Shown piece after piece: positions 14,546 to 14,929 of a stretch of DNA of 64,000 nucleotides. Origin of the DNA: a virus. Location: positions 1 to 64,000 of the IMG/VR virus record IMGVR_UViG_3300037087_000150; one strand, written 5' to 3'. The first letter of the stretch is position 1, and every line of letters starts with the position of its first letter. Made by a program: the position numbers and the translations under genes. The notes under the pieces are model-generated. The model was given only the letters and a program-made list of their open reading frames with translations, was not told where the DNA came from and did no database searches.

Positions 14546-14929
14546 ATGTCATAGGTACAAAAATTAACAGTCGTTTCCCGTAGAGATTTAACTCCGGGTT
14601 ATCAATCCACACAGGCAATTCACGCCGCAATCAAATTCGTTTTCGAATTCCCATAGATTGCACAGAAATGGTATCCAGATCCTTATTTAGCCGTTCTCAG
14701 TGTTGAAAACGAATCAGAGTTACAACAACTCATTCAGAAATTAGAAAATTCCAATTTAAAATATTCCATATTTAGGGAATCTGATATTGATGATCAGATC
14801 ACCGCTATCTGTATTGAGCCTTCCGATGAAACAAGACGGATAACATCCTCTTTGCCTTTAATGTTAAAAGAATATAAATCAGAAAATTTACTTGATAAAA
14901 ACAATTATAAATTAGTATTAACAAATTAA
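14546..14929 (+). CDS. Peptidyl-tRNA hydrolase type 2 (Pth2)-like protein with two in-frame TAG codons
   Basis: MS*VQKLTVVSRRDLTPGYQSTQAIHAAIKFVFEFP*IAQKWYPDPYLAVLSVENESELQQL...FRESDIDDQITAICIEP...ITSSLPL; TAG at 14552 and 14654; 127 codons to TAA, no frameshift. Confidence 0.85.

Follow-up and report, generated by a model that had tools for sequence, protein, structure and literature searches.

Stop-codon-recoded phages that carry their own suppressor tRNAs were reportedly described by Ivanova in 2014 and by Borges in 2022, and in genetic code 15 TAG is read as Gln. Code-15 phages, such as the Lak and crAss-like phages, have dozens of TAG-bearing genes, often late or structural, and display a clear rise in coding density. 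The expression of these genes depends on the phage tRNA because, according to the available text of two reports, a phage tRNA(CUA) reads the in-frame UAG (PMC11210395, PMC13037316). Suppressor tRNAs are also present in phages of standard code: XacN1 carries tRNA(CUA) genes, and the accessible part of its description gives them no target, the authors having extended annotated ORFs past their 18 amber stops without seeing one (Yoshikawa et al. 2018, PMC5852040). In jumbo phages, PTH2 proteins are encoded among tRNA and tRNA-repair genes and a role in peptidyl-tRNA hydrolysis has been proposed; in the available text of that account the word 'suppressor' is absent and 'amber' occurs in the reference list only (Iyer et al. 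2021, PMC7824862). A literature search covering article texts returned no account of an amber-gated PTH2 or HD-domain gene.

Early in-frame stops and very short ORFs are well known as sensors of the translation machinery. In prfB, which encodes RF2, an early in-frame UGA and a +1 frameshift sense the release factor; in trpL leader-peptide attenuation, a short ORF senses tRNA activity; and the lambda bar minigenes, in which two codons follow a strong ribosome-binding site, become toxic if host Pth runs short, no suppressor being involved.

The window analysed here is a stretch of 64,000 nucleotides (positions 1 to 64,000 of the IMG/VR virus record IMGVR_UViG_3300037087_000150), and the contig it belongs to, 86 kb long and rated about 14% complete, is a fragment of a giant phage. 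The window contains the following features, all encoded on one strand:

14546-14929, + strand: PTH2-like gene of 127 codons, in which two UAG codons need read-through, ending in TAA
14552-14554, + strand: gate TAG at codon 3, next base G
14654-14656, + strand: second in-frame TAG at codon 37, in the context F-P-TAG-I, with ATT next
14944-15429, 15433-15798, 15801-16253 and 16250-16672, + strand: four ORFs with no function assigned, between the gated gene and the leader
16832-16838, + strand: AAAGGAG, resembling a Shine-Dalgarno site, 6 nt upstream of the leader minigene
16845-16868, + strand: leader minigene M-S-UAG-T-R-P-P-stop, its first three codons the same as those of the gated gene
16987-17463, + strand: conserved protein of no known family, 158 aa (about 140 aa elsewhere), located after the leader and before the tRNAs
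17495-17566, + strand: first tRNA(CUA), found by ARAGORN; Rfam RF00005, 53.2 bits (gathering score 29)
17610-17682, + strand: second tRNA(CUA), found by ARAGORN; Rfam RF00005, 47.5 bits

Since the full-length product depends on UAG decoding and a second UAG sensor appears to lie in the same block, we consider it probable, from sequence comparison, that this module works as a translational gate dependent on suppressor tRNA, in a phage whose genetic code is standard in other respects. In contrast to the code-15 phages, TAG is still a stop here, and the gate is confined to codons 3-5 of one module, which comprises the PTH2-like gene, an HD-domain partner found in relatives and the leader minigene. 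The window gene belongs to the same protein superfamily as the PTH2 of jumbo phages, as far as the available text describes it (PMC7824862), and is likewise found in large phages, but annotations lose its true start because of the gate. The likeness to prfB and trpL is that an early in-frame stop in a translation-related gene would report the decoding state and that a leader ORF would sense tRNA; unlike in prfB, reading stays in frame, and what is sensed is proposed to be the phage suppressor tRNA. The lambda bar genes share the two-codon ORF, the strong ribosome-binding site and the connection to peptidyl-tRNA hydrolase, whereas the minigene described here would go on in frame to K/R-P-P-stop once UAG is decoded, and covaries in its gate codon with the tRNA anticodon.

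The frame from 14546 to 14929 reads M-S-TAG-...-TAG-...-TAA. As the initial annotation had claimed, two ambers are its only interruptions: TAA, TGA and frameshifts are absent before the terminal TAA. The gene had indeed escaped the ORF track, as it is not among the code-11 ORFs of at least 80 aa and emerges with TAG read-through only; the longest code-11 ORF in the frame is a C-terminal remnant of 25 aa (14852-14929). The Pth2 hallmark motifs that had been pointed out are all present (VVSRRDLTPGYQSTQAIHAA, VLSVENESEL, TAICIEP and ITSSLPL), and residues 6-105 match positions 2-114 of the 115-position Pfam profile PF01981 (PTH2) with 31.5 bits, above the gathering score of 23 (E = 2.2e-7). Comparison of the window gene with nine relatives yields dN/dS values of 0.125-0.271, and pN is well below pS on both sides of codon 37, in agreement with the earlier suggestion of a working gene rather than neutral decay. 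Because dN/dS is this low (0.13-0.27), 14546-14929 is confirmed as an intact PTH2-superfamily gene and not a pseudogene.

Neither TAG falls in the invariant columns of the orthologue alignment. The TAG at codon 37 is common to the closest clade (L001, L013, of which L018 is a duplicate, and L017); elsewhere among the relatives this position is E, V, D or H. With the codon-3 TAG kept family-wide and the codon-37 TAG kept in this clade, expression would depend on amber suppression, as had been supposed. The initial annotation drew no link between the gene and the tRNA(CUA) pair, the leader minigene or the family-wide gate. A second candidate for a gated gene in the window, at 11747-11965 ('MD*I'), was rejected: an ordinary ATG is present at 11792, directly after the stop of the upstream gene.

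At the level of sequence, a profile built from 60 orthologues matches seven solved Pth2/Bit1 chains; in the best of these (2zv3, E = 6e-9), profile positions 8-108 of 117 align with residues 2-114 of 115. The canonical equivalogs NF003314 and TIGR00283 score below their cut-offs (28.6 bits versus 126 and 20.8 bits versus 82, respectively). A catalytic role for the 'GK' Lys and the 'DAGxT' Asp of Pth2 was reportedly proposed by Fromant et al. in 2005. In alignments to 1wn2, 24bt and 1rzw, the position of the archaeal 'GK' Lys is Tyr19 here, and the residue preceding Q20 is Y, Q, V, S, T, A or H among the orthologues listed; at the position of the 'DAGxT' Asp every aligned orthologue carries Glu (Glu78 here), which is a conservative replacement, and Q23, H26 and T86 do not vary across the orthologue alignment. 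The protein appears to be a divergent, peptidyl-tRNA-hydrolase-like member of the PTH2 superfamily with a putative hydrolase activity.

The gene can be followed through 165 phage loci, of which 162 are analysable and give 139 distinct proteins. The gate is TAG in 128 of these orthologues and TAA in three, while five are ungated and three are unresolved. Because the same N-terminal place, within the first codons, holds a TAG in 128 of 139 orthologues, down to 38% identity, the sharing of this position is far beyond chance. The gate sits in an N-terminal tail of variable length; the base directly 3' of the TAG is a purine in 127 of the 128, and ATG, GTG and TTG are absent between the gate and the first strand in 106 of the 128 distinct gated orthologues. 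Although TAG makes up only 138 of the 1,420 ordinary stops in these loci (9.7%), 128 of the 131 gated orthologues use it as their gate. The gate is also specific to the module: 86 of the 111 non-overlapped candidates for ORFs with an N-terminal amber are PTH2-like and/or HD, and the flanking genes of relatives read normally in neighbourhoods of 12 kb.

In addition, the gate codon covaries with the tRNA anticodon, one lineage having the anticodon UUA together with TAA in both the gene and the leader gates. In L093, whose gene is intact, and in L059, which is 99.94% identical to L093, the gate is TAA, a tRNA(UUA) lies about 1.4 kb downstream and the leader minigene reads M-T-[TAA]-V-N-K-P-P. Ungated PTH2-like genes adjoin tRNA(CUA) in L069 and in Myrna; the GTG-TAG-GTG of Myrna gp84 is probably not a gate, since a GGAGG site fits the annotated second GTG.

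Both tRNA(CUA) genes of the window are on the strand of the gated gene, 2.6 kb downstream of it, and this linkage is general. A tRNA(CUA) is found in 92 of the 128 TAG-gated orthologue loci; where the gene is flanked by at least 3 kb on both sides, 58 of 65 gated loci have one within 6 kb and seven have none, and 114 of 115 suppressor tRNAs share the strand of the gated gene. U33 is near-universal in tRNAs, and the decoding efficiency of the window tRNAs is uncertain because both have C33 (the anticodon loop of the first is CCCUAAA) and the second has two non-standard pairs in the acceptor stem, marked as mismatches in the Rfam alignment. C33 was dropped as a defining trait, being present in merely 6 of the 75 distinct tRNA(CUA) sequences. 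The bodies of these 75 are very diverse, with no single nearest isotype, and when nearest neighbours of 140 suppressor tRNAs were sought among the 428 other tRNAs of the loci, scores were low and the isotypes mixed. The 'Trp-like' anticodon arm we take to be a mere resemblance to the sequence of E. coli tRNA-Trp.

The leader minigene follows the pattern M-x-UAG-x-K/R-P-P-stop, is located upstream of the ORF of about 140 aa in 24 of 33 loci and is likewise preceded by AAAGGAG or AAGGGAG in L001, L005, L010, L017 and L092. Over 91 loci, a locus's own gate word was seen again 16 times, versus 5.36 expected. The protein of about 140 aa has homologues at 32 other loci and no match in Pfam, PDB or Atlas. 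A fold of the leader RNA, computed on the single sequence 16830-16995, is not significant (z = -1.78, 8 of 200 shuffles being as good or better). The neighbouring ORFs of the window, including the four between the gated gene and the leader, belong to no family in Pfam or PHROGs; these four are patchily conserved, in 0-5 loci each, and DNA similarity to the 735-kb phage LR756501 covers their block (14944-16672).

Of the complete stand-alone genes for the HD-domain partner in relatives, 14 of 15 are gated, and a tblastn search of the 86-kb contig found no such partner. Its assignment to the HD family is weak, as Pfam HD matched 2 of 13 members (best E = 0.0013); of the PDB matches, a class-II tRNA nucleotidyltransferase (E = 0.009) is the best credible one, and the top-listed hits, to virginiamycin B lyase, look spurious. 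The gate also occurs in the cultured phages pT24, XacN1, RAS14, GAP32 and ME3, where it is mis-annotated: the annotated starts of pT24 BPT24_235 and XacN1 ORF364 are downstream of the true start, and the HD gene of GAP32 appears as the fragments GAP32_397 to GAP32_399. The complete pT24 genome (234,670 bp) contains three gate-like ORFs, of which the one without an adjacent ordinary start is the PTH2-HD gene; TAG ends 37 of its 296 ORFs, and strong suppression would therefore be costly. XacN1 ORF364, a fusion of HD and PTH2-like domains, has an in-frame ATG-AAG-TAG upstream with an AGAGGA ribosome-binding site and is a candidate target of the XacN1 tRNA(CUA), although XacN1 alone is ambiguous because an in-frame ATG follows five codons after the TAG.

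Could TAG instead be reassigned throughout the genome, as in the Lak and crAss-like phages, with other recoded genes in the unseen 86%? The contig holds only about 14% of the genome, recoded phages have a tRNA(CUA) of their own as their hallmark, and TAG ends no more than 4 of 118 contig ORFs. However, these four do terminate at TAG, with a back-up stop 1-16 codons further on, and over the 86 kb the coverage by ORFs of at least 100 aa rises only slightly, from 84.7% in code 11 to 85.8% with TAG read-through. Read-through is needed in the contig by the PTH2-like ORF and the leader minigene only, and to other ORFs of 60 codons or more it brings no substantial gain; of the traits of code 15, this fragment has the phage tRNA(CUA), but neither a clear gain in coding density nor TAG-free termination. 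The normal flanking genes of the relatives, the single convincing gated gene beside 37 TAG-terminated ORFs in pT24 and the lack of read-through targets at the amber stops of XacN1, in the accessible text (PMC5852040), also argue against reassignment, which we regard as improbable. An RF-1 domain is absent from the contig, that is, from about 14% of the genome, and other TAG-bearing genes, tRNAs or release factors may lie elsewhere in it.

Re-initiation is rated somewhat lower still. It would make M-S-stop a real upstream mini-ORF, with the PTH2 domain translated from a near-cognate ATT, ATA or GTA and no suppressor involved; in its favour, the post-gate codon is ATT in 77 and GTA or GTT in a further 27 of the 128 distinct orthologues, these codons being third-position variants of ATG and GTG. 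Yet such a mechanism does not require TAG, which the gates prefer so strongly over its share of ordinary stops, nor the covariation of gate codon and anticodon; in some orthologues the gate is followed by AAC, AGC, ACA or GGC, and the second TAG lies inside the domain and also has ATT next to it, more in keeping with a context for decoding than with a start codon. That UAG specifies a pyrrolysine-like or other non-standard residue needed by the enzyme is very unlikely: the ARAGORN label 'tRNA-Pyl' points that way but follows from the CUA anticodon and nothing else, whereas the TAG positions are tolerant (E, V, D or H at codon 37, and a variable-length tail at the gate), the tRNAs match the general tRNA model with diverse bodies, and a TAA/UUA version exists. 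Least probable of all, to the point of being negligible, is a decaying gene with two chance nonsense mutations. The standard code does interrupt the gene twice, but the conservation of the gate among orthologues and the dN/dS values refute this reading, and the gene has no frameshift or other stop and is linked to suppressor tRNAs.

For the suppression-dependent gate, we infer read-through itself, an inserted amino acid and a purpose of the circuit as follows. The full PTH2-like domain would be made only if the phage tRNA(CUA) decodes UAG at codons 3 and 37; with two UAGs in the gene and UAG-reading tRNAs nearby, the enzyme is probably made only while these tRNAs override the stop. The tRNA(CUA) genes, which close the same-strand block, would supply the decoding, and the leader minigene with its ribosome-binding site may act as a second sensor of UAG decoding in the block. 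When UAG is read as a stop the leader would end after two codons, and when it is suppressed the leader would extend to Pro-Pro-stop, just upstream of the gene for the protein of about 140 aa and the tRNAs. The amount of enzyme would be tied to suppressor activity, and because there are two gates it may scale roughly with the square of suppression efficiency; in relatives the HD-domain hydrolase partner would be gated likewise.

As to purpose, we tentatively prefer proportional control, in which the hydrolase would recycle acylated or peptidyl tRNA species arising from suppression; the chief rival idea is a feedback in which the hydrolase would act on the suppressor tRNA itself. A broader and slightly more speculative possibility is that the suppressor tRNA is not a decoding aid but the signal of a self-contained regulatory circuit, whose only conserved targets would be the PTH2-like and HD gates and the Pro-Pro-stop leader before its own operon. 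The PTH2-like and HD enzymes, as a pair acting on the tRNA 3' end, might then deacylate or trim the suppressor tRNA, making the circuit a homeostat or pulse timer of read-through during infection, and possibly the evolutionary seed of late-gene TAG recoding.

The orphan suppressor tRNAs of many standard-code large phages thereby gain a conserved and testable target. The gate also exposes a systematic annotation error, in that gene callers miss or shorten gated genes, as with BPT24_235, ORF364 and GAP32_397 to GAP32_399. Compact pairs of gate and tRNA, including the TAA/UUA variant, could serve engineered translational control in synthetic biology, and the circuit is open to bench work because phages that carry it have been cultured for Acinetobacter (ME3), Cronobacter (GAP32), Xanthomonas (XacN1), Stenotrophomonas (RAS14) and Tenacibaculum (pT24). 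Finally, the gate suggests that the recoding of phage genomes could begin with one regulated gene and not with a genome-wide change.

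The PTH2-like gene of the window opens with ATG-TCA-TAG, has 33 sense codons before its second TAG and 90 more between that TAG and the terminal TAA. As the initial annotation had stated, no TAA, TGA or frameshift lies inside it, its translation carries all four of the Pth2 motifs that had been listed, and it is missed by the ORF track, being absent from the standard-code ORF list and emerging on TAG read-through.

Elements of the window
14546-14929, plus strand: PTH2-like gene with TAG at codons 3 and 37; matches PF01981
16845-16868: leader minigene, M-S-UAG-T-R-P-P-stop, with AAAGGAG 6 nt before it
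16987-17463: conserved ~140-aa ORF with homologues in 32 other loci
17495-17566, plus strand: tRNA, anticodon CUA (ARAGORN; Rfam tRNA model 53.2 bits, gathering score 29)
17610-17682, plus strand: tRNA, anticodon CUA (ARAGORN; Rfam tRNA model 47.5 bits, gathering score 29)

The longest standard-code ORF in the frame of the gene is a 25-aa C-terminal remnant and, therefore, the PTH2 domain requires the reading of both TAGs. Compared with nine relatives, the gene shows dN/dS values of 0.125-0.271 (Nei-Gojobori), and pN is far below pS in codons 4-36 and likewise from codon 38 to the end.

The assignment to the PTH2 family holds in Pfam (PF01981), where the window protein scores 31.5 bits against a gathering score of 23 and covers nearly the whole profile. 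A profile of 60 orthologues also matches seven solved Pth2/Bit1 chains, the best of which (2zv3; E = 6e-9) is matched end to end. By its sequence the protein is not a canonical Pth2; its NCBIfam equivalog scores fall far under the cut-off, and PHROGs places it in phrog_1866, which is annotated as unknown function. The 'GK' lysine and the 'DAGxT' aspartate have a catalytic role in Pth2. In the alignment, the counterpart of the archaeal 'GK' lysine is Tyr19, the residue preceding Q20 being variable among the listed orthologue sequences, and the 'DAGxT' Asp position is Glu78, which is invariant in the orthologues, as are Q23, H26, W42, F76, D80 and T86. The protein is described here as PTH2-like, with a putative peptidyl-tRNA hydrolase activity.

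The loci compared number 165: the window, four huge-phage GenBank loci, the best 80 of 107 relatives in IMG/VR and the best 80 of at least 452 metagenome relatives. Three lack the 5' end and the remaining 162 encode 139 distinct proteins, most of which begin with a gate (an in-frame TAG or TAA within the first codons, ahead of the domain).

Start of the PTH2-like gene in 139 distinct proteins
ATG, 1-13 codons, TAG, in-frame domain: 128
ATG, 1-13 codons, TAA, in-frame domain: 3
Ordinary start: 5
Unresolved class: 3

Codon 3 is the gate in 68 of the 128 TAG-gated genes, and codons 4 and 5 in 23 each; 106 of the 128 contain no ATG, GTG or TTG from the gate to the first strand. The gate is followed directly by A in 98 genes, by G in 29 and by C in one, and ATT is the next codon in 77; ATT also follows the internal TAG (codon 37) of the window gene. 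A purine after UAG reportedly favours amber suppression (Bossi; Miller and Albertini). Of the ordinary stops in the compared loci, 138/1420 are TAG. One orthologue (L050, ~5990-6060) has neither a gate nor an in-frame ATG, GTG or TTG, and an out-of-frame ATG-AAG-CGG-ATC-TAA lies just upstream; it is possibly a frameshifted or decayed copy.

Gate-like candidates in the compared loci, defined as non-overlapped M-x(0-5)-TAG followed by at least 80 open codons, number 111, and 86 of these are PTH2-like and/or HD genes, the latter encoding the HD-domain partner found beside the PTH2-like gene in relatives; in most of the other 25, an ordinary start lies a few codons past the TAG. Tenacibaculum phage pT24, whose complete 234,670-bp genome has 296 greedy ORFs and one tRNA(CUA), contains three gate-like ORFs: two have a canonical start 1-2 codons past the TAG, and only the PTH2-HD gene has none.

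Several other ORFs in these loci also have a TAG close to their start codon. A third small protein family of 82-85 aa (L060, 5600-5854; L082, 6527-6790) begins M-S/T-TAG-I and shares a motif around NKKHN..DS.IP.W.VK.KG.T.YVNH; the L082 member has no canonical start past the TAG. Longer ORFs directly 5' of the PTH2-like gene (L042, 5184-5981; L077/L078, 4981-5997) begin MTH-TAG-I or MKH-TAG-I and resemble the PTH2-like first strand before diverging; they are candidate gated paralogues or fusions. Adjoining the gated gene of L006 is an HNH or homing-endonuclease-like ORF (4800-5984; phrog_559, E = 8.8e-84) that starts MS-TAG-V, a gate that may be due to chance because the ORF has an internal Met at codon 28.

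The HD-domain protein (phrog_14850) adjoins the PTH2-like gene in 21 loci, in four of which the HD gene is cut by a contig end; it is TAG-gated within its first codons in 14 of the 15 complete stand-alone cases (the exception is L122). HD and PTH2-like domains are fused, in either order, in L045/L164, pT24, RAS14, CM1, XacN1 and Xoo-sp13; the fusion carries its gate at the N terminus. No HD homologue was found in the window contig.

A gate also occurs in several cultured phages. In pT24, MK-TAG-I heads the PTH2-HD fusion, the GenBank CDS begins 90 nt into the match and an annotated tRNA-Sup lies 2.5 kb upstream; MK-TAG-T heads the HD-PTH2 fusion of RAS14. XacN1 ORF364 is annotated from a Met five codons past the TAG of an in-frame ATG-AAG-TAG, which has an AGAGGA site upstream. 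The PTH2-like gene of Cronobacter phage GAP32 is headed by MAQ-TAG-N, with an annotated Sup-tRNA 2.3 kb downstream. In the HD gene of this phage (NC_019401.1, L169, ~3300-3880), an in-frame TAG follows LDTG within the domain, and the annotation splits the gene into the overlapping fragments GAP32_398, 398A and 399. ME3 has MT-TAG-I and a tRNA annotated 'anticodon CTA' ~450 nt upstream. In RsoM2USA, the MKS-TAG-I of the HD gene overlaps the end of the preceding ORF. In Mycobacterium phage Myrna, gp84, which is PTH2-like, is probably not gated; 130 nt downstream of it, inside a tRNA array, is a 72-nt tRNA (L086, 3475-3546) that is CUA by ARAGORN and tRNA-Ser in GenBank. Acinetobacter phage ME3 (L170) also has an annotated tRNA nucleotidyltransferase (361-1023) 1.7 kb upstream of its tRNA(CUA) and gated PTH2-like/HD genes, which fits a tRNA-3'-end theme.

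The two CUA tRNAs are the only tRNAs that ARAGORN finds on the window contig. Both carry C33 in the loop CCCUAAA, a minority trait (6 of 75 distinct linked tRNA(CUA) sequences), and the second has two non-standard acceptor-stem pairs. Just 3' of them is a 289-aa ORF (18934-19803) with 63-70 % identity to ORFs in the same post-tRNA position in seven related loci. Across the comparison, a tRNA(CUA) occurs within the fetched locus of 92 of the 128 distinct TAG-gated genes, and in 58 of the 65 that are flanked by 3 kb or more on each side; 114 of 115 suppressor tRNAs are on the strand of the gated gene, most of them at distances from tens of bases to a few kilobases. Among the five ungated orthologues, L069 has two suppressor tRNAs directly downstream, and the loci of the other four contain none.

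The codon and the anticodon also covary. L093 and L059, two assemblies of one lineage (99.94 % identity over 11.5 kb, one gap), have the gate ATG-ACG-TAA and a same-strand tRNA(UUA) ~1.4 kb downstream of the gene, which is intact in L093 and has a one-base indel in L059. The L093 leader minigene reads M-T-[TAA]-V-N-K-P-P-[TAG], with TAA likewise at codon 3. Gene gate, leader gate and anticodon have thus changed together, which would be difficult to account for if the tRNA did not decode both gates. A further TAA gate (L147) has no tRNA inside its short locus, and in L076 and L110 a TAG gate is paired with a tRNA(UUA), for which wobble pairing could permit decoding of UAG.

The leader minigene recurs as well. 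In 91 loci, the gate word of the locus's own gene recurs 16 times on the same strand (5.36 expected), and 11 of these recurrences are M-x-UAG-x-(K/R)-P-P-stop or close variants. The minigene lies 75-136 nt upstream of the ~140-aa ORF. A scripted search of the 33 loci with this ORF detected it in 24 (duplicates kept in the count); five of the nine misses, checked by hand, yielded variants in L093, L116 and L002 and none in L016 and L003. In the same 33 loci, with the window and L116 left out of the tally, a suppressor tRNA follows the ORF by ~17-1200 nt in 24, and lies upstream in 4, whereas the fetched locus of the remaining 3 contains none. Since Pro-Pro-stop endings slow termination, the leader could make expression of the downstream gene and of the tRNAs respond to suppression. 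A single-sequence fold of the leader region was not significant.

The window comprises the opening 64 kb of a single IMG/VR contig of 85,869 bp (GC 29.7 %), which CheckV estimates as 14 % complete and which is therefore a fragment of a much larger phage. The standard code serves this fragment well, with 84.7 % of it in ORFs of 100 aa or more versus 85.8 % with TAG read through. Its 118 greedy ORFs end in TAA (83), TGA (31) or TAG (4), each of the last with a further stop 1-16 codons later. Topoisomerase II, DNA polymerase, an SbcC-like protein, GroEL and a peptidase or endolysin are recognised on it. The nearest named relatives of the window gene are uncultured huge phages of 462-735 kb; DNA similarity to LR756501 spans the gene block and stops just short of the tRNAs. 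At the contig start, bases 1-100 are repeated exactly at 673-772, as a direct repeat close to this end of the contig; the first 200 bases are not repeated.

PTH2 is known in jumbo phages, where a role in tRNA recycling has been proposed (PMC7824862); in the part of that text available, 'suppressor' has no match and 'amber' occurs only in the reference list. The XacN1 authors could identify no targets of its CUA tRNAs (PMC5852040), and a full-text literature search found no paper on the gate. The gating itself is strongly supported by comparison across loci, which supports the earlier proposal of a functional Pth2-like gene whose expression depends on amber suppression. The description that best fits the window gene is that of a PTH2-like gene gated by suppressor tRNAs, within what would be a conserved module that senses read-through in a huge phage of standard code.
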